Below, in pieces: positions 7,266 to 64,000 of a stretch of DNA of 64,000 nt. The DNA comes from Escherichia coli (lineage in GTDB: Bacteria > Pseudomonadota > Gammaproteobacteria > Enterobacterales > Enterobacteriaceae), in assembly GCF_022846255.1 (NCBI RefSeq), contig NZ_AP025682.1. One strand, 5' to 3'. The notes under the pieces are model-generated. The model ran no database searches and was not told where the DNA came from. It worked only from the letters and a program-made list of their open reading frames with translations. A program made the translations under genes and the position numbers. The number at the start of each line of letters is the position of its first letter. Position 1 is the first letter of the stretch.

Positions 7266-8228
7266 TTATTGCACGAAGCGCGAGGTAACGTACTGGCTGT
7301 AATCATTCGCTACAGCCGGGACTTTGCCCTGCTCTTTCAAAAACTGCGCGGTGTCGATGATCGCTTTGTTCACCGGTCCGGTCAGTTCTGCCGTTTGCTG
7401 CTGCGGCGTCAGATAGGTATTCCCCTTCACCAGCCCCGGAATGTCACCTTCCGGCACGCCGCTTAACCGCGCCAGTTTGCTGATGTTTTCCGGCTGTTTC
7501 AGCCACGCGTCTGGGTTAGCAATGTACGGTTGCTGAGCATCGATGGCGCTTTTAGCGAACGCTTTCACGACCTCAGGATGTTTCTCGGCAAAATCTTTCC
7601 GCACGACCCAGACGTCCAGTGTCGGCGCGCCCCACTGCCCGACCTGTTCAGAATCGGTCAGCACCTTGCCATCTTTTTCCAGGGCGTTAACCGCCGGTGC
7701 CCAGACATAAGCACCATCAATATCTCCCCGCTGCCATGCGGCGATAATTGCGGGCGGCTGCAGGTTCACAATCTCAACTTGCCCAGGTTTAATACCCCAG
7801 TGTTTCAGCGCCGCCAGCAGGCTGTAGTGGGTGGTGGAGATAAACGGTACGGCGATGCGTTTACCAATCAAGTCTTCCGGTTTACTGATAGTTTTCTTTA
7901 CCACCAGCGCTTCGGAGTTACCCAGTTTTGACGCCAGCAAGAAGACTTCAATCGGCACCTGTTGGCTGGTTGCAACCGCTAACGGGCTGGAACCGAGGTT
8001 GCCGATTTGCACGTCGCCCGAAGCCAGCGCCCGCACGATGCTGGCTCCACTGTCAAACTTACGCCAGTCCACGGTTGCTCCGCTTTCTTTAGCAAAGGTG
8101 TTGTCGGCCTGAGCCACTTTCGCCGGTTCGGCGGAGGTTTGATACGCCACGGTGACGTTCACCGCCTGCGCCTGAAAAGCGATGAATGCCAGTGCGGCAA
8201 GAAATGTGTTACGCGATGAAATTGCCAT
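7266..8228 (-). CDS. tauA: taurine ABC transporter periplasmic binding protein
   Basis: 320 aa with signal peptide MAISSRNTFLAALAFIAFQAQA. Confidence 0.95.
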   Translation of the reverse strand: MAISSRNTFLAALAFIAFQAQAVNVTVAYQTSAEPAKVAQADNTFAKESGATVDWRKFDSGASIVRALASGDVQIGNLGSSPLAVATSQQVPIEVFLLASKLGNSEALVVKKTISKPEDLIGKRIAVPFISTTHYSLLAALKHWGIKPGQVEIVNLQPPAIIAAWQRGDIDGAYVWAPAVNALEKDGKVLTDSEQVGQWGAPTLDVWVVRKDFAEKHPEVVKAFAKSAIDAQQPYIANPDAWLKQPENISKLARLSGVPEGDIPGLVKGNTYLTPQQQTAELTGPVNKAIIDTAQFLKEQGKVPAVANDYSQYVTSRFVQ

Positions 8229-10880: not shown

Positions 10881-11094
<214 letters not shown>

Positions 11095-21599: not shown

Positions 21600-24783
<3,184 letters not shown>

Positions 24784-24789
24784 TAATAA

Positions 24790-26088
<1,299 letters not shown>

Positions 26089-26097
26089 GCAATCAAT

Positions 26098-26128
26098 GTC
26101 GGATGCGGCGCGAGCGCCTTATCCGACC
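26098..26128. repeat. REP element between lacY and lacA
   Basis: GTCGGATGCGGCGCGAGCGCCTTATCCGACC. Confidence 0.75.
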
Positions 26129-26153
26129 AACATATCAGGGCGGAATGATCGCA

Positions 26154-26765
26154 ATGAACATGTCGATGACAGAAAGAATAAAAGCAGGCAAGCTATTTAC
26201 CGATATGTGCGAAGGCTTACCTGAAAAAAGACTTCGTGGAAAAACGTTAATGTATGAGTTTAATCACTCGCATCCATCAGAAGTTGATAAAAGAGAAAGC
26301 CTGATTAAAGAAATGTTTGCCACGGTAGGGGAAAACGCCTGGGTAGAACCCCCCGTCTATTTCTCTTACGGTTCCAACATCCATATAGGCCGCAATTTTT
26401 ATGCAAATTTCAATTTAACCATTGTCGACGACTACACGGTAACGATCGGTGATAACGTACTGATTGCACCCAACGTTACTCTTTCCGTTACGGGACACCC
26501 GATACACCATGAATTGAGAAAAAACGGAGAGATGTACTCTTTTCCGATAACGATTGGCAATAACGTCTGGATCGGAAGTCATGTGGTTATTAATCCAGGC
26601 GTCACCATCGGGGATAATTCTGTTATTGGCGCGGGTAGTATCGTCACAAAAGACATTCCACCAAACGTCGTGGCTACTGGCGTTCCTTGTCGGGTTATTC
26701 GCGAAATAAACGACCGGGATAAGCAATATTATTTCAAAGATTTTAAAGTTGAGTCTTCAGTTTAA
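26154..26765 (+). CDS. lacA: galactoside O-acetyltransferase
   Basis: 203 aa from ATG 26154 (MNMSMTERIKAGKLFTDM...); hexapeptide-repeat acyltransferase. The ORF-track N-terminal extension is a translation of the REP. Confidence 0.95.
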   Translation: MNMSMTERIKAGKLFTDMCEGLPEKRLRGKTLMYEFNHSHPSEVDKRESLIKEMFATVGENAWVEPPVYFSYGSNIHIGRNFYANFNLTIVDDYTVTIGDNVLIAPNVTLSVTGHPIHHELRKNGEMYSFPITIGNNVWIGSHVVINPGVTIGDNSVIGAGSIVTKDIPPNVVATGVPCRVIREINDRDKQYYFKDFKVESSV

Positions 26766-29418: not shown

Positions 29419-29574
29419 GAAATTCCCCCTTTTTGCTGTTTGAAACCCAAAAAATCCGCCGCATTCTATTCATCTGAAGATAAAAAGCAATCGTTTTCGT
29501 AGGGGGATATATTTTTTATATGAATGAGTGCAAAAAGGCGGGGGAAACTTATCTGTGTAAAAACAGTGGGTAGG

Positions 29575-29650
29575 CATGATAAGACGCGTCAGCGTCGCAT
29601 CAGGCATCTGCGCACGGTGTCGGATGCGGCGCGAGCGCCTTATCCGACCT
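29575..29650. repeat. REP pair between codB promoter region and prpE 3' end
   Basis: GATAAGACGCGTCAGCGTCGCATCAGGC ... GTCGGATGCGGCGCGAGCGCCTTATCCGACC. Confidence 0.75.
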
Positions 29651-38317: not shown

Positions 38318-38560
38318 CTACGTAATCAACCTGATTTGCCGAATCCCAACCATCGGCGATGATAGCCCCCGTAATGCGTGGTCCTTATTTCCGATAAGTT
38401 TACTTGAGTCTTTAGCTTCCCATTTCAGCCCACTCTCCCCTGTGTGGGCTTTTTTCATTGTTCTGACCCGTCCTGAATAGCCAAACAATGGCAATGTTCC
38501 ACTTTGCAGGGATGATAATAAGGGGATCTGATTCAGAAAAGTTTTGAAAAGTTGGACCGC
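38318..38560 (-). CDS. yahM: small uncharacterised protein, YahM-like
   Basis: Convergent with yahN; 81 aa from the internal ATG (MAVQLFKTFLNQ...). Identity from memory, start uncertain. Confidence 0.45.
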   Translation of the reverse strand, partial: AVQLFKTFLNQIPLLSSLQSGTLPLFGYSGRVRTMKKAHTGESGLKWEAKDSSKLIGNKDHALRGLSSPMVGIRQIRLIT

Positions 38561-39184
38561 CATCGAGGCCTCGAACCCCGTACCATACAACAATCCTGGT
38601 TGTCGTCTGCTCTTCCTGATGAGCTAATGGCGGTTTTTGATATGAGCCTTACAACATATTTTCTGTCAGGCTTGAGTGCGATGCGTAAGATACAGAAAAG
38701 ACCCCACACAAACATGATGGAATTATGATTTTTTTCATATGAATGTCAACCCACACATTCACAAAACATCTGTATGAGAACATTTTTTATACACCATATA
38801 GCTGCGAAACCACTACTGGTGCTTTTTTAAGCGAAACTCCGCCGTTCACAACAAAATATCGGCGAAAAAGGAGGGGGAATGCCATTTGGCATACAGATAC
38901 ACAGATGAAATGATGACCTGCTTTGCGATTCACTCTCTGGTGGAATAACAACTTGCAGGTGGCTCTCTTAAATAAAAATAAACGTCGCAGATAATAAAGC
39001 TCTGATTAAACCATACACTATCAGAAATCGCTCATAACTAACGTGTAAAGTAGTGGAGTTAATTTAACAATCTGAATTTACGCTATAGGTTTACCACTAC
39101 TTTGATATTATTTCGCTCTCCTTAACTAAAAAGTTAAGTGGAGCGAAGTTAATATGTTAAACCACAGGATGTTTATTAATTTTT

Positions 39185-48104: not shown

Positions 48105-48292
48105 CAGACTGCCTGATGCGCTACGCTTATCAGGCCTACAGATTCTTGCGCCACTCGTAGGCCGGATAAGGCGTTCACGCCGCATCCGGCTGTGGTGGCC
48201 AATGCCTGAAGCGCCACGCTTATCAGGCCTACAGATTTCCGCGCCATTCGTAGGCCGGATAAGGCGTTCACGCCGCATCCGGCAGAAACAAC
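48105..48292. repeat. tandem REP/BIME cluster between yahI and yahG
   Basis: Two ~95-bp units, each CTGATGCGCTACGCTTATCAGGCCTACAG...GTAGGCCGGATAAGGCGTTCACGCCGCATCCGGC. Confidence 0.8.
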
Positions 48293-56555: not shown

Positions 56556-58589
56556 TCACGCGTCCGGGAACATCACGCTATGGCCCGGCGCTTCACGATG
56601 GAGATGGATAAAGTTAAGGTGCCGCTCGTACTGGTCGAGAATATCGGTGATCACCTGCTCTTTGCTGTAGTCCATCAGGTCGTTGCCCTGGCTGCCTTCT
56701 AACAGGAAGGTTTCCAGCCGGTAGTAGGTCGATTTCCCGCTACGTGCGCGGTAGGTAAAGCCCGGCACCGAATATTGCTGCGGCCAAATCTGATAGACAA
56801 AGTTTTGCTCTTCGCCCATATGCACCAACAAATCCAGATGCCCCAACTGTTGTCCCTCTTCCGGCGGCAGGTTTTTTAGCTCCACGTACGCGCCGCGCAA
56901 CCGCAGCTCCTGCGCCACTTCTTCCATTGCCGGGTAACAGACCGTCTCCATCATCTGTTTAGTGTAACGCGTGCCCGGATAATTCATCAGGCGCGAGAGA
57001 CGTTTTTTCCAGCTCAGGCGATCCTGAAGCCCCAGCGGTCGCGGCGCGGTATCGCGGTTGGCACTTTCACGGCGGTAATCTTCTACCTTCAGAGATTTAT
57101 ACAACCCCGCCATCACGAAGAAAATCACAAAGCTGAACGGCAGCCCCATGATTACCGTGGTGTTTTGCAGCGCGGATATCCCGTTGGTCATCAGCATGCC
57201 GAGCGTCAGCAGGCCAATCGCCACCGACCAGAAGACGCGCAGCCAGCCGGGGGCGTCGCTGTTGATATCTTTAAGCTGCGAGGTGAAATTCCCCAGCACC
57301 AGCGCACCGGAGTCCGCCGAGGTCACATAAAACAGCAGGCCAGTAATGGTGGCGACGGAGGCGCTAAAGGTAAACGCCGGATACTGCGCCAGCAGGCTGT
57401 AGAAGCCGCGCTCCGGATGGACCATCGCTTCCTCGGCAAATGCCGCGCCGCCGTGGATAATTTCATACAGCGCGCTATTGCCGAATACCGAGAGCCATAA
57501 CAGCGTGAAGGTAAACGGAATAATCAACGTGCCCAGCACGAACTGGCGAATGGTACGCCCACGCGAGATACGCGCCAGGAACAGGCCGACAAACGGCGAC
57601 CATGCCACCCACCATGCCCAGAAGAAGAGCGTCCAGTTATTCATCCACTCAACCGGACGGTCGAAGGCAAAACTGTTGAGCGTCATGCCCATAAAGCGAT
57701 TCACATAGTCGCCAACATTCAGCACCAGTGCATTAAGCAGGAACGAAGTGTCGCCCATAAACAGCACAAACAGGATCAATCCCAGCGCCAGCGCAACATT
57801 AAGCTCCGATAACACACGAATGCCCTTATCGACACCGGAGGTGACAGAGATCGTGGCGATGATCACCGACAAGGCGATCAGTGCCGCTTTCGCCGCCATT
57901 GAATCGGGAATATCAAACAGTACGCTCAAGCCATAGTTAAGCTGCACCACACCAATACCGAGCGTAGTGGCAATACCGAAGATGGTGCCGATCACCGCTG
58001 CAATATCCACTGAGTGACCTATCGGCCCGTTAATCCGTTTACCGAAGATCGGGTACAGCGCTGAGCGGATGGTGAGCGGCAAATTATAACGATAGCTAAA
58101 GTATCCGAGCGCCATGCCCATCAGCGCATACATCGACCAGCCGGTTAAGCCGTAGTGAAACAGCGTCCAGACCATCGCCTGACGCGCGGCCTCAATCGTC
58201 TGACCCGCGCCTTCCGGCGGCTGCATATACTGCGTTACCGGTTCGGCTACGGAGAAGAACATCAGGTCGATACCGATCCCGGCAGCAAACAGCATCGCCG
58301 CCCAACTCAGCAGACTGAATTCCGGTTTTGATTGTTCTGGCCCGAGCTTCACCGAACCAAAACGCGAACAAGCGATACAGACCACAAAGACAATATAGAG
58401 CGTTGCCGCCAGCAGATAGTACCAACCGAAGGTTTTAGAGACCCAGTCCAGCGTGCGTCCAATCCACAGGGCCGAGAAGTCGCGAAACAGGATCGTTGTC
58501 AGGGAAAACAACAAAATCAGTCCGGCGGAAGTGTAAAACACCACCGGATTGATTTTGTCCTTTTCCCTGCTGTGTGAAAGGTCTGTCAT
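56556..58589 (-). CDS. betT: choline transporter (BCCT family)
   Basis: 677 aa. Confidence 0.95.
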   Translation of the reverse strand: MTDLSHSREKDKINPVVFYTSAGLILLFSLTTILFRDFSALWIGRTLDWVSKTFGWYYLLAATLYIVFVVCIACSRFGSVKLGPEQSKPEFSLLSWAAMLFAAGIGIDLMFFSVAEPVTQYMQPPEGAGQTIEAARQAMVWTLFHYGLTGWSMYALMGMALGYFSYRYNLPLTIRSALYPIFGKRINGPIGHSVDIAAVIGTIFGIATTLGIGVVQLNYGLSVLFDIPDSMAAKAALIALSVIIATISVTSGVDKGIRVLSELNVALALGLILFVLFMGDTSFLLNALVLNVGDYVNRFMGMTLNSFAFDRPVEWMNNWTLFFWAWWVAWSPFVGLFLARISRGRTIRQFVLGTLIIPFTFTLLWLSVFGNSALYEIIHGGAAFAEEAMVHPERGFYSLLAQYPAFTFSASVATITGLLFYVTSADSGALVLGNFTSQLKDINSDAPGWLRVFWSVAIGLLTLGMLMTNGISALQNTTVIMGLPFSFVIFFVMAGLYKSLKVEDYRRESANRDTAPRPLGLQDRLSWKKRLSRLMNYPGTRYTKQMMETVCYPAMEEVAQELRLRGAYVELKNLPPEEGQQLGHLDLLVHMGEEQNFVYQIWPQQYSVPGFTYRARSGKSTYYRLETFLLEGSQGNDLMDYSKEQVITDILDQYERHLNFIHLHREAPGHSVMFPDA

Positions 58590-58652
58590 CCAGTATCCCC
58601 ACTGTTATTGTTACCATTTAAAATCAAATTAGTAACAATTAAGACACATTTT

Positions 58653-58672
58653 ATATTGAACGTCCAATCAAT
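58653..58672. promoter_or_regulatory. candidate BetI operator palindrome TATTGA-N8-TCAATA in the betT/betI divergent promoter
   Basis: Inverted repeat midway between the betT and betI starts. Confidence 0.5.
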
Positions 58673-58717
58673 AACCGCTTTAATAGATAAACAACGCTGA
58701 TGAATGGAGTGGCGAAA

Positions 58718-59305
58718 ATGCCCAAATTGGGAATGCAGTCGATCCGGCGCAGACAACTGATCGACGCCACGCTGGAAGCAATAAATGAAGTGGGCATGCA
58801 CGATGCAACGATCGCGCAGATCGCCCGCCGTGCAGGCGTTTCTACGGGGATCATCAGCCACTATTTCAGGGACAAAAATGGTCTGCTGGAAGCAACCATG
58901 CGCGATATCACCAGTCAGCTGCGTGACGCGGTTTTGAATCGATTACATGCACTTCCGCAGGGCAGTGCAGAGCTGCGATTACAGGCGATTGTTGGCGGAA
59001 ACTTCGATGAAACCCAGGTGAGCAGTGCGGCGATGAAAGCCTGGCTGGCCTTCTGGGCCAGCAGTATGCATCAGCCGATGCTCTATCGCTTGCAGCAGGT
59101 CAGTAGCCGCCGCTTATTGTCGAATCTGGTGAGCGAATTTCGCCGCGAGTTACCGCGCCAACAGGCACAGGAAGCGGGCTACGGACTTGCCGCGCTGATT
59201 GACGGATTATGGCTGCGCGCGGCACTGAGCGGCAAACCGCTGGATAAACCTCTCGCACACTCGCTGACCCGTCACTTTATTACTCAGCATTTACCCACCG
59301 ATTAA
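58718..59305 (+). CDS. betI: TetR-family repressor of bet genes
   Basis: 195 aa from ATG 58718 ([26 protein letters not shown]...). Confidence 0.93.
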
Positions 59306-59318
59306 CCGAGGAGACGTG

Positions 59319-60791
59319 ATGTCCCGAATGGCAGAACAGCAGCTTTATATACATGGTGGTTATACCTCCGCCACCAGCGGTCGCACCTTCGAGACCATTA
59401 ACCCGGCCAACGGTAACGTGCTGGCGACCGTGCAGGCCGCCGGGCGTGAGGATGTCGATCGCGCCGTGAAGAGTGCCCAACAGGGGCAAAAAATCTGGGC
59501 GGCGATGACCGCTATGGAACGCTCGCGTATTCTGCGTCGGGCCGTTGATATTCTACGTGAACGCAATGACGAACTCGCAAAACTGGAAACCCTCGACACC
59601 GGAAAAGCATATTCGGAAACCTCAACCGTCGATATCGTTACCGGTGCGGACGTGCTGGAGTACTACGCCGGGCTGATCCCGGCGCTGGAAGGCAGCCAGA
59701 TCCCGTTGCGTGAGACGTCATTTGTTTATACCCGCCGCGAACCGCTGGGCGTAGTGGCAGGGATTGGCGCATGGAACTACCCGATTCAGATTGCCCTGTG
59801 GAAATCCGCCCCAGCGCTGGCGGCAGGCAACGCGATGATTTTCAAACCGAGCGAAGTCACCCCGCTTACCGCGTTAAAGCTGGCCGAAATTTACAGCGAA
59901 GCGGGCCTGCCTGACGGCGTATTTAACGTGCTGCCGGGCGTAGGTGCGGAAACCGGGCAGTATCTGACCGAGCATCCGGGCATTGCCAAAGTGTCATTTA
60001 CCGGCGGTGTCGCCAGCGGCAAAAAAGTGATGGCTAACTCGGCGGCTTCCTCCCTGAAAGAAGTGACCATGGAGCTGGGCGGTAAATCACCGCTGATCGT
60101 TTTCGACGATGCGGATCTCGATCTCGCCGCTGATATCGCCATGATGGCGAACTTCTTCAGCTCCGGTCAGGTGTGTACCAACGGCACCCGCGTCTTCGTT
60201 CCGGCGAAATGCAAAGCCGCATTTGAACAAAAGATTCTGGCTCGCGTTGAGCGCATTCGCGCGGACGACGTTTTCGATCCGCAAACTAACTTCGGCCCGC
60301 TGGTCAGCTTCCCGCATCGCGATAACGTGCTGCGCTATATCGCCAAAGGCAAAGAGGAAGGCGCACGCGTACTGTGCGGCGGCGATGTACTGAAGGGGGA
60401 TAGCTTCGATAACGGCGCATGGGTTGCACCGACCGTGTTCACCGATTGCAGCGACGATATGACCATTGTGCGAGAAGAGATTTTCGGGCCGGTGATGTCC
60501 ATTCTGATCTACGAGTCGGAAGACGAAGTCATTCGCCGCGCTAACGATACCGACTACGGTCTGGCGGCGGGTATCGTGACGGCGGACCTGAACCGCGCGC
60601 ATCGCGTCATTCATCAGCTGGAAGCGGGTATTTGCTGGATCAACACCTGGGGCGAATCCCCGGCAGAGATGCCCGTTGGCGGCTACAAACACTCCGGCAT
60701 TGGTCGCGAGAACGGAGTGATGACGCTCCAGAGTTACACCCAGGTGAAGTCCATCCAGGTTGAGATGGCTAAATTCCAGTCCATATTCTAA
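59319..60791 (+). CDS. betB: betaine aldehyde dehydrogenase
   Basis: 490 aa from ATG 59319 ([15 protein letters not shown]...). Confidence 0.95.
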
Positions 60792-60804
60792 CCAGGAGGT
60801 TTAT

Positions 60805-62493
60805 TTGCAATTTGACTACATCATTATTGGTGCCGGCTCAGCCGGCAACGTTCTCGCTACCCGTCTGACTGAAGATCCGAACACAACCGTGCTGCTGCTT
60901 GAAGCAGGCGGCCCGGACTATCGCTTTGACTTCCGCACCCAGATGCCCGCCGCGTTGGCGTTCCCGCTACAGGGCAAACGCTACAACTGGGCCTATGAGA
61001 CGGAACCCGAACCGTTTATGAACAACCGCCGCATGGAGTGCGGACGCGGCAAAGGTCTGGGCGGTTCATCGCTGATCAACGGTATGTGCTACATCCGTGG
61101 CAATGCGCTGGATCTCGATAACTGGGCACAAGAACCTGGTCTGGAGAACTGGAGTTATCTCGACTGCCTGCCCTACTACCGCAAGGCCGAGACTCGCGAT
61201 GTGGGCGAGAACGATTACCACGGTGGCGATGGCCCGGTGAGCGTCATCACCTCCAAACCCGGCGTCAATCCGCTGTTTGAAGCGATGATTGAAGCGGGCA
61301 TGCAGGCAGGCTACCCGCGCACGGACGATCTCAACGGCTATCAGCAGGAAGGTTTTGGCCCGATGGATCGCACCGTCACGCCGCATGGCCGTCGCGCCAG
61401 CACCGCGCGTGGCTATCTCGATCAGGCCAAATCGCGCCCTAACCTGACCATTCGTACTCACGCCATGACCGATCACATCATTTTTGACGGCAAACGCGCG
61501 GTGGGCGTCGAGTGGCTGGAAGGCGACAGCACCATTCCGACCCGCGCGGCGGCGAATAAAGAAGTGCTGTTATGTGCAGGCGCGATTGCTTCACCGCAGA
61601 TCCTGCAACGCTCCGGCGTCGGCAACGCTGAACTGCTGGCGGAGTTTGATATTCCGCTGGTGCATGAATTACCCGGCGTCGGCGAAAATCTTCAGGATCA
61701 CCTGGAGATGTATCTGCAATACGAGTGCAAAGAACCGGTTTCCCTCTACCCTGCCCTGCAGTGGTGGAATCAGCCGAAAATCGGTGCGGAGTGGCTGTTT
61801 GGCGGCACCGGCGTTGGTGCCAGCAACCACTTTGAAGCAGGCGGATTTATTCGCAGCCGTGAGGAATTTGCGTGGCCGAATATTCAGTACCATTTCCTGC
61901 CAGTGGCGATTAACTATAACGGCTCGAACGCAGTGAAAGAGCACGGCTTCCAATGCCATGTCGGATCGATGCGCTCGCCAAGCCGTGGGCATGTGCGGAT
62001 TAAATCCCGCGACCCGCACCAGCATCCGGGAATTCTGTTTAACTACATGTCGCACGAGCAGGACTGGCAGGAGTTCCGCGACGCAATTCGCATCACCCGC
62101 GAGATCATGCATCAACCCGCGCTGGATCAATACCGTGGCCGCGAAATCAGCCCTGGTGTCGAATGCCAGACGGATGAGCAGCTCGATGAGTTCGTGCGTA
62201 ACCACGCCGAAACCGCGTTTCATCCGTGCGGTACCTGCAAAATGGGTTATGACGAGATGGCTGTGGTTGACGGCGAAGGCCGCGTACACGGGCTGGAAGG
62301 CCTGCGCGTGGTGGATGCGTCAATTATGCCGCAAATTATCACCGGCAATTTGAACGCCACGACGATTATGATTGGCGAGAAAATAGCGGATATGATTCGT
62401 GGGAAGGAAGCGTTGCCGAGGAGCACGGCGGGATATTTTGTGGCAAATGGGATGCCGGTGAGAGCGAAAAAACTGAATCGCGATTTGAACTAA
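60805..62493 (+). CDS. betA: choline dehydrogenase (GMC oxidoreductase)
   Basis: Probable TTG start at 60805, 5 nt after AGGAGG (60794-60799), giving [21 protein letters not shown]...; FAD-binding GxGxxG at N-terminus. Start codon is an inference. Confidence 0.9.
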
Positions 62494-63602
62494 CGCAGGA
62501 ACTTACAAGATTGAGAGTTACCGTTCTACGATGAGGACCGAATCCTTATATAAAAAACATAGGTAACTCTCATGCTTCATATCCGCAGTCCCGCCATCAA
62601 ACTTTAAGCCGATTCGCTCAATCTGGCGGATGATGGTGCTATGGATACGCTGATAAACCACAAGTGTAATGCCACTCAGCTTAAGAATCACGCAACCAGT
62701 GCTCCTGGCTAGGGTTACTTGTTCTTTCCCACTCCCGGTTAGCAGTGGTCAGCGATCAACTGCGTAAGCCGGGCGTATTTATCCCAAAGCGTGGAGTAAT
62801 ATCAGGTCTACGCTAAAAAAGTCAATTTATTCGGTTATCATGCACGAAAAGGGGACTTGTGGCGAGTATAAAAATAAGTCAGACCCAAAAACTACGTGGA
62901 GCTTTAAACACGGTTCGTATAATTTATTAGCAGCGATTTATTTTTACCCTTCTTTAATCAGTCATCATGATTAAATATTTTTTATCACAAGATTATCGCT
63001 TCTCTAACATTTTATTTTTTATTTATTATCAATTGATAAGAAAAAATTGTTAGTACGTTTTTGCAAAAAATTAAAAGTGTTGGGATACACTTAAACAAAT
63101 GAACAAAAACCAAACAAACTGAGATTTGCAATCAGAAAAAATTATTCAAGAGAACATCTCTAATTTATTGGTAGCGTCCATGAACGATGATTTCCTCACA
63201 ACCAAAAAGTAAAGAAAATCTTATGATAAGATATATTTGTAAATTAGTATTATTAACGTCAAAGATCTTTTCTTTTCTGCACCCTTACTTTGCAACGCAT
63301 AAAAAACAAATAAAATCAATAATATATGCAGAAAAAGTTATTTTACGTAAAAATAACATTAAATAAATCAAGACTATTGAACATCACTAAAACATTAGAC
63401 GTAATACACATTCACCCCCGCTCCTTGACTCAGGGTTTTAATATTTTTTGTTTCACATCATTGTAGAAAAAATCGCGCATTAAAAATGAGTTGTAGAAAA
63501 ACCGCACAATAAATATTTCATATTTAATCTATTGCGTAGAACTACTATTCAAAAAATCTTATTAATGAGATAATGAAATTACATCGATAACGTTCTGATT
63601 GC

Positions 63603-63635
63603 AGGCACACTTATCTGGGTGTGCCTCTTTTTTTT
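63603..63635 (+). terminator. strong intrinsic terminator: stem AGGCACAC/GTGTGCCT, 8-nt loop, then 8 T
   Basis: Read directly; ends 20 bp upstream of the recombinase ATG. Confidence 0.7.
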
Positions 63636-63655
63636 ACAACTGTACACGGTGGCGT

Positions 63656-64000
63656 ATGACGAGAAAATATCTCACACAGGATGAAGTCTACAGGCTGATG
63701 GATGCAGCCCAGAGCATGTCCTTTCCTGAAAGAAATCGCTGTCTAATTATGATGGCTTTCATTCACGGTTTTAGGGCCAGTGAACTTCTTGATTTACGTT
63801 TATCCGATATTGATGCATCAGGAAAACAACTTAATATCCGGCGTATTAAAAATGGCTTCTCGACAACACATCCTCTTCTTCCTGATGAATATAATCTGAT
63901 CAAGTTGTGGCTTAAGCAGAGGAAGTTAATTGAAAATGGAGTTGAAGGAGACTGGCTTTTTCTCTCCCGGAAACGCCGCCCTATCAGCAGACAACATTTT
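63656..64000 (+). CDS. FimB/FimE-family tyrosine recombinase, N-terminal 115 codons (truncated by window end)
   Basis: MTRKYLTQDEVYRLMDAAQSMSFPERNRCLIMMAFIHGFRASELLDLRLSDIDASGKQLNIRRIKNGFSTTHPLLPDEYNLIKLWL...FLSRKRRPISRQ; the FIHGFRASE, RxKNGFSTTHPL and FLSRKxxPxSRQ blocks match FimB/FimE. Confidence 0.8.
   Translation, partial: MTRKYLTQDEVYRLMDAAQSMSFPERNRCLIMMAFIHGFRASELLDLRLSDIDASGKQLNIRRIKNGFSTTHPLLPDEYNLIKLWLKQRKLIENGVEGDWLFLSRKRRPISRQHF

Follow-up and report, generated by a model that had tools for sequence, protein, structure and literature searches.

A conserved stem-loop and U-tract 20 nt upstream of the fimX recombinase gene of Escherichia coli: a probable cis-acting leader terminator

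In the 64,000-nt stretch of E. coli DNA analysed here (the window), a stem-loop followed by a run of eight Ts ends 20 nt before the start codon of fimX, the recombinase gene of the PAI-X island, and we consider this element to be, probably, an intrinsic terminator in the leader or entry region of that gene, which would act in cis as an attenuator or insulator. The structure points in the plus direction, is conserved with covarying base pairs and holds a fixed position ahead of the recombinase gene in three versions of the island. From these features, we infer that transcription is terminated here in vivo, that the promoter lies upstream and that the FimX level and the switching rate are affected.

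The stem-loop and its genomic setting

The stem-loop (63603-63626, plus strand) can be written as AGGCACAC(TT)-ATCT-(GG)GTGTGCCT. Its arms, AGGCACAC at 63603-63610 and GTGTGCCT at 63619-63626, form eight Watson-Crick pairs, five of which are G-C, and two G·U pairs extend the stem to 10 bp around a four-nucleotide loop, ATCT. The U-tract follows on the same strand (63627-63635) and is made of C63627 and T8 (63628-63635). Between the T-run and the ATG at 63656 lies a plus-strand spacer of 20 nt (63636-63655), which holds the ribosome-binding site GGTGG (63648-63652) and is too short for a promoter. An 8-bp stem and eight Ts, 20 bp before a recombinase ATG and at 63603-63635, were what an earlier note on this DNA had described, and the sequence confirms both these features and the plus-strand orientation proposed there. 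The hairpin has no T-run behind it on the minus strand, and the element is thus directional for plus-strand transcripts.

In a consensus scan of positions 58000-64000, the hairpin, with its 10 pairs, ranked first among terminator-like sites. The RNA of 63590-63640 folds with -15.3 kcal/mol (z = -4.1; none of 200 shuffles was as good), and the hairpin alone with -14.2 kcal/mol. When we applied a strict filter, namely a perfect 8-bp stem with at least four G/C, a loop of 3-8 nt and at least seven Ts in eight positions, the hairpin was the only site retained from both strands of the whole 64-kb window, and no site was retained from 30 first-order Markov random sequences. With its G+C-rich stem inside the usual range of about 5-14 bp, its short loop and its U-tract, the element fits an intrinsic (Rho-independent) terminator. 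Its weak point as a terminator is the gap of 1-3 nt that separates the stem from the U-tract across alleles. An approximate score of the d'Aubenton-Carafa type, which was calculated with modern energies and is not reliable in its absolute values, fell below zero for every fimX allele and above zero for isrC.

The last 7.5 kb of the window contain the betT / betI-betB-betA cluster, in which betA ends at 62493. A 1.16-kb AT-rich stretch with about 30% G+C comes next, followed by an open reading frame that starts at 63656 and runs off the window. A megablast search of 5,426 complete E. coli genomes showed the full stretch in 86 genomes at about 99% identity, where the downstream gene order is ipbA, hyxR, hyxA, hyxB and then ykgH. 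Judged by sequence identity, the open reading frame is ipbA (=fimX=hbiF), the tyrosine invertase gene of the E. coli PAI-X island (fimX-hyxRAB), which is inserted after betA. The window holds the 5' part of the gene (63656-64000, plus strand, cut by the window end), which we assigned as that of a tyrosine-type DNA invertase from the annotation in the 99%-identical genomes, and the encoded N-terminus, MTRKYLTQDEV, is conserved in the FimX family. FimX inverts hyxS, a promoter element between fimX and hyxR, as well as fimS and ipuS (PMC6083910; PMC3789825). The hyxS inverted repeats lie 3' of fimX and beyond the window, at 7739-7771 and 8012-8044 of a matching genome locus (L001).

The spacer that runs from the betA stop to the conserved leader (62494-63510, no strand assigned) is AT-rich, with about 30% GC, and varies between alleles. 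As the earlier note had stated, no protein-coding frame is apparent upstream of the hairpin, which is correct as far as conserved frames are concerned. Just after betA, near the left island junction, the spacer contains a fragment (62507-62633) that is about 79% identical to the K-12 helix-turn-helix pseudogene ylbG and at which a minus-strand open reading frame (62518-62691) is found; the first 90 nt or so 3' of betA are common to genomes without the island. Further along are a 75-nt insertion specific to the window-type allele (62749-62823) and an islet of about 150 bp (62874-63023) that is 84-92% invariant across alleles in otherwise divergent AT-rich DNA. The best sigma-70-like match of the spacer, GTGGAG-16-TATAAT, ends at 62923, inside this islet.

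Closer to the hairpin, the minus strand of 63486-63530 translates to RLNMKYLLCGFSTTH, which is like the FimX/FimE motif QLNIRRIKNGFSTTH (tblastn E of 0.03 in a tiny database) and may be the inverted relic of a fim-type recombinase fragment. Coinciding with this relic is a direct repeat, TTGTAGAAAAA, with two copies 30 bp apart (63461-63471 and 63491-63501), and an inverted copy of the repeat overlaps the T-run (63629-63641). We rejected a decayed upstream recombinase gene as a description of this region, in which only the 15-aa motif-like relic, on the opposite strand, was found. Elsewhere in the window, ARAGORN placed a tRNA-Ser(GGA) gene at 38553-38633 (minus strand), Rfam naRNA4 (REP-derived) is matched above its gathering score at three places (10948-11026, 29573-29649 and 48160-48229) and a lacZYA-like run of open reading frames is found at 21709-26765.

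Conservation within E. coli and in diverged islands

A 121-nt probe located the element at one place each in about 1,889 of the 5,426 complete E. coli genomes, always with at least 94% identity, and all of these island-bearing genomes carry the hairpin. The allele of the window, with a GGCACAC stem and C+T8, belongs to a minority of about 90 genomes. Counted as exact matches of a stretch of 81-83 nt, the common alleles have a GGCATAC stem and either CTC+T8 with ACAAC (784 genomes), CTC+T6 (376 genomes, O157:H7 included) or CTC+T8 with AAAAC (312 genomes), and further variants have a CTC+T7 tail or a GGTATAC stem. The only stem substitutions seen in E. coli are C>T changes in the 5' arm, which give AGGCATAC in most genomes and AGGTATAC in one (L007). 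With these changes, the plus-strand RNA keeps G·U pairs (-14.2, -12.3 and -10.3 kcal/mol), and the same changes degrade the minus-strand hairpin (-12.4, -6.2 and 0 kcal/mol). These pairing-preserving substitutions are weak evidence for a plus-strand RNA structure, as there are only two events and as pairing would survive half of all the transitions that are possible.

Comparison of the window-type allele with that of UPEC 536 divides the region in two. The spacer (62400-63480) is only 33-84% identical, whereas from about 63480 onward, the hairpin included, identity rises to 95-100%, like that of the island genes. The block at 63511-63584 (plus strand) is nearly invariant among E. coli PAI-X alleles according to the conservation profile, and the near-invariance of 63511-63656 as a whole within E. 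coli may reflect constraint or may simply reflect a recent spread of the island. Individual genomes show rearrangements at or near the element. IS1 is inserted directly 5' of the hairpin (at about 63590/63591) in strain ET479 and inside the ipbA start (at about codon 15) in strain HS, and one metagenomic contig joins unrelated DNA within the hairpin loop. In O157:H7 genomes, ipbA and hyxR are pseudogenes and the hairpin is kept. Two of about 1,890 copies of the hairpin and ipbA start are on records labelled as plasmids.

When one genome per species was scanned for FimX (100,044 species), a single locus was found, in a cryptic-clade Escherichia, where the hairpin is kept with a changed loop and CTC+T6. 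This agrees with the published description of the island as exclusive to E. coli (PMC3789825). A protein search revealed two diverged recombinases of the FimX clade, P0013 (81% identity) and P0018 (84%). The island of P0013 (L015-17) has the same gene order, i.e., recombinase, 242-aa protein, 248-aa protein and autotransporter, in a different context, downstream of acetolactate decarboxylase and synthase genes. Its leader reads CGGGCTGCTCAT-CTC-ATGAGTGGCCCG and then TTCTTTTTT, 25 nt before a GTG start (-18.5 kcal/mol), and the hairpin region is separate from the neighbouring alsS unit. The leader of P0018 (L021) reads GGCACAC...GTGTGCC and then TTTTCTTTT, about 30 nt before the true ATG. The flanks of the leaders can be aligned across the versions, with GATAACGT lying about 10 nt ahead of the stem and TACA(C/G)GGT preceding the start, and this argues that the same element, rather than a coincidence, is present in the diverged islands. 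Alignments A3 and A4 and the matches of the covariance model to L021 and L015 show that the sequence in common with these versions extends no further upstream than the 18-nt 5' flank, CGATAACGTTCTGATTGC (63585-63602, plus strand). As read from the alignments, the conserved package is a short flank, the hairpin, the T-run, 20-30 nt with a ribosome-binding site, and the recombinase gene.

A covariance model that was built from the PAI-X alleles and L021, with L015 left out, matched the L015 leader with 26.8 bits and an E-value of about 0.004 in about 100 kb, subject to a rough E-value calibration, and 10 of 10 pairs were standard. In an alignment of eight sequences, all 79 pair cells pair. Three stem pairs are changed on both sides (A-U to C-G, C-G to G-C and A-U to C-G), and five more show compatible one-sided changes. 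The observed covariation was reached by one of 500 shuffles, and slid registers gave 25-69% pairing. It should be considered that a single lineage, L015, accounts for the three compensatory pairs and that the alignment was fitted to the model. By its covariation, the hairpin appears to be maintained as a structure by selection.

Outside this clade, the element was not seen in the leaders considered. No hairpin lies upstream of the Salmonella homologue (72%), the leaders of two further homologues (L023, 66%; L024, 64%) have T-runs but no G+C stem, that of a fourth (L029, 62%) has no T-run and a poor stem, and the fimB leader has no such element. The L029 sequence (1085-1275) comes from a fimbrial locus of E. 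coli in which two fim-type recombinase genes stand head to head, and its leader has motifs in common with that of fimX, namely AGAAAAAA(T)CGCGCATT and TTGyAGrCATACT...TGGGTGT. An older leader of the family may have given rise to the fimX terminator.

Transcription into fimX and the alternative readings

A PWM scan of the conserved block (63511-63584) gave a candidate extended -10 element, TGaGATAAT, at 63566-63574, and the fimX promoter may lie within this block. Promoter prediction upstream of the hairpin, for which the earlier note had called, gave candidates that are weak and no more frequent than in shuffles, and none is common to the three island versions. The promoter scans gave no credible site in the 20 nt that separate the T-run from the ATG. 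fimX transcripts have been measured in wild-type UTI89 (PMC4217179), and native-promoter clones of Fim recombinases have been used. As fimX is transcribed and as there is neither room nor a site for a promoter 3' of the T-run, transcription should begin upstream and run across both the hairpin and the U-tract. It is this lack of downstream promoter room, together with the conserved covarying structure and the linkage to the recombinase gene in three versions, that supports the leader or insulator role suggested in the earlier note.

In the mechanism that we propose, polymerases would come from a fimX promoter in the conserved block or the AT-rich spacer, from promoters that arise spuriously in this spacer, or from betIBA by read-through. 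Every incoming polymerase would meet the hairpin and its U-tract some 20 nt ahead of the start codon and transcribe them, the majority would stop at the U-tract, and fimX mRNA would be produced only by the fraction that reads through. Insulation and attenuation would together keep FimX, the enzyme of a heritable switch, at a low level, and termination would yield a short leader RNA comparable to IsrC at flu. In folds of the leader, no pairing that competes with the hairpin arms, as an antiterminator would, was found, nor was a conserved open reading frame for a leader peptide. Given that significant pairing with the Shine-Dalgarno region is also lacking (see below), the element may be constitutive. 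The CUC spacer of the common alleles suggests a leaky terminator, as it should lower efficiency.

A conditional form of attenuation, which we hold to be rather unlikely, would go further. Here, the attenuator would set the phase-switching frequency of each lineage through the FimX dose and the inversion rates of hyxS, fimS and ipuS, and the leader would persist in the manner of IsrC. The extent of read-through would depend on a factor that acts on the leader, on sensitivity to UTP or growth rate at the U-tract, or on lineage-specific alleles of the stem and U-tract (C+T8, CTC+T8 and CTC+T6), with the FimX dose being tuned differently in APEC-type, B2/ST131 and O157 lineages.

The terminator could also be the 3' end of a free-standing, trans-acting small RNA of the Hfq type, 55-250 nt long, with a promoter in the conserved block (the TGaGATAAT element) or further upstream. 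An orphan terminator with a U8 tail in a 1.16-kb region that lacks conserved open reading frames would suit such an RNA, as would the candidate extended -10 and the conservation within E. coli of the sequence just 5' of the hairpin. Rfam also reports a weak likeness to IS102/isrC (25.8 bits, E of 0.014-0.078). This match is, however, sub-threshold (gathering score of 46), its alignment rests mainly on the terminator, and no family reaches the gathering score near the element. Moreover, only about 18 nt 5' of the hairpin are common to the L021 and L015 versions, which leaves no conserved body or seed, the promoter candidates do not rise above shuffles, and the fixed distance of 20-30 nt to the recombinase start points to a role in cis. 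The small RNA raised in the earlier note, for which no Rfam family at threshold, no strong conserved promoter and no conserved RNA body were found, is thus an unlikely reading.

Still less likely is that the hairpin does not terminate transcription and is instead an element of the 5' UTR, such as a protective stem-loop, a U-rich enhancer that binds S1 or a structure that masks the ribosome-binding site. The hairpin does sit within the probable fimX 5' UTR, the CUC spacer of the common alleles weakens it as a terminator, and the minimum free energy fold pairs ACGUUCUG (63590-63597) with CGGUGGCGU, in the Shine-Dalgarno region, around the hairpin. Yet, the duplex between the flank and the Shine-Dalgarno region was no better than with shuffled flanks in four of four variants (fraction as good, 0.38-0.75), and the anti-Shine-Dalgarno pairing of the 5' flank that the folds had proposed was rejected on the basis of these energies. 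In addition, each of the three versions retains a T-run immediately after the stem (T6-T8, TTTTCTTTT and TTCTTTTTT), which disfavours a stabilising hairpin, as a terminator needs the T-run and a stabilising hairpin does not.

We give equally little credence to a leftover with no function, be it the terminator of a lost upstream gene (e.g., a second recombinase) or a chance palindrome. The upstream spacer does look like decaying DNA, being variable between alleles and containing the ylbG-like fragment and the possible inverted recombinase relic at 63486-63530, and recombinase genes occur in tandem at fim and as head-to-head pairs elsewhere (L029). Nonetheless, the strict filter places the site far outside chance, and the compensatory changes and the stem, T-run and spacing are kept where the other upstream DNA is unrelated. 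A plus-strand terminator 20 nt before a transcribed gene would, furthermore, act on that gene whatever its origin.

Finally, a site acting at the DNA level, either a protein-binding palindrome or an invertible segment bounded by the inverted repeat 63489-63501 / 63629-63641 that would flip the terminator, is very improbable. In its favour, the hairpin is flanked on both sides by this repeat (I1, 13 nt, 92%), FimX is itself a DNA invertase, and TTCTGATT is found in the hyxS left repeat as well as 5' of the hairpin. Against it, L015 and L021 lack the upstream repeat arm, the region is collinear in every matching genome except one that is disrupted by IS1, with no inverted configuration among about 1,889, a genome-wide screen of UTI89 and CFT073 overexpressing each Fim recombinase revealed inversions only at fimS, hyxS and ipuS (PMC6458436), and the stem covariation and G·U pairs fit an RNA rather than a DNA-binding site. 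We accordingly rejected a fim-type invertible segment, given the lack of inverted copies in genomes and the negative published screen (PMC6458436). The hairpin arms were likewise rejected as FimX recombination sites, showing no likeness to the hyxS repeats beyond the octamer TTCTGATT.

Returning to the leader terminator, its interest lies in the enzyme that it would control. FimX is an accessory recombinase that flips the hyxR promoter and, in uropathogenic, ST131 and avian pathogenic E. coli, can turn on type 1 pili, and control of its level has been poorly described. A conserved terminator with read-through, directly 5' of the start codon, would offer a concrete control point for FimX, and the natural stem and T-run alleles would serve as ready-made variants for relating terminator strength to switching frequency.

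Comparison with known systems

The fimX leader terminator is apparently an undescribed example of a familiar type of element. In classical leader attenuators, such as those of trp, his and pyrBI, a terminator between the promoter and the coding start sets the fraction of polymerases that read through. The fimX leader differs from these in that neither a conserved leader peptide nor antiterminator pairing was found.

Termination also sets the level of another fim-type recombinase, FimE, for which Joyce and Dorman (2002) reportedly described control by a Rho-dependent terminator in fimS that depends on the orientation of the element. The likeness to fimX lies in the level of a recombinase being set by termination, whereas the known fimE terminator is Rho-dependent and 3' of the gene. 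Upstream of K-12 fimE, we noted a plus-strand hairpin of 11 pairs followed by TTTTTATCT (L013, 1623-1652). This hairpin lies about 360 nt past the stop codon of fimB and 86 nt short of the GTG start of fimE, and it may be the fimB terminator or an element of the fimE leader. Homology between this hairpin and the fimX element was rejected, as the sequences cannot be aligned.

The insulating terminators found at the edges of mobile-DNA cassettes offer another parallel. The fimX hairpin lies at the upstream edge of the segment shared between the islands, where we propose that it blocks incoming transcription, from betIBA here and from alsS in L015. Unlike such terminators, it has about 1 kb more of island-side AT-rich DNA upstream of it in PAI-X, and thus does not stand at the physical border of the island here.

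By analogy, the closest documented counterpart of the fimX terminator is the terminator of IsrC (IS102, RF00124) before flu (agn43) in K-12. From the end of the isrC terminator to the ATG of flu, the distance is 27 nt, as compared to 20 nt at fimX, and the terminated leader is catalogued as a small RNA. Expression of flu is reported to rely on antitermination or read-through (PMC5389530), and a passage in that paper that cites Wallecha et al. 2014 describes it as controlled by IsrC antitermination. Both loci belong to phase-variable circuits for surface structures on horizontally acquired DNA. Homology between the two is, however, not demonstrable: the Rfam IS102/isrC match, with 25.8 bits, falls short of the gathering score of 46, our fimX-leader covariance model gives isrC a marginal 18.4 bits (E of 0.23), and these weak matches reflect a shared architecture rather than homology. 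The two systems also differ in that the flu promoter has been mapped, whereas fimX has weak candidates only, and in that the gene regulated at fimX is that of the recombinase itself. Taken together, the IsrC/flu and FimX cases suggest that a terminator placed immediately ahead of a start codon is a recurrent feature of phase-variation loci in E. coli.
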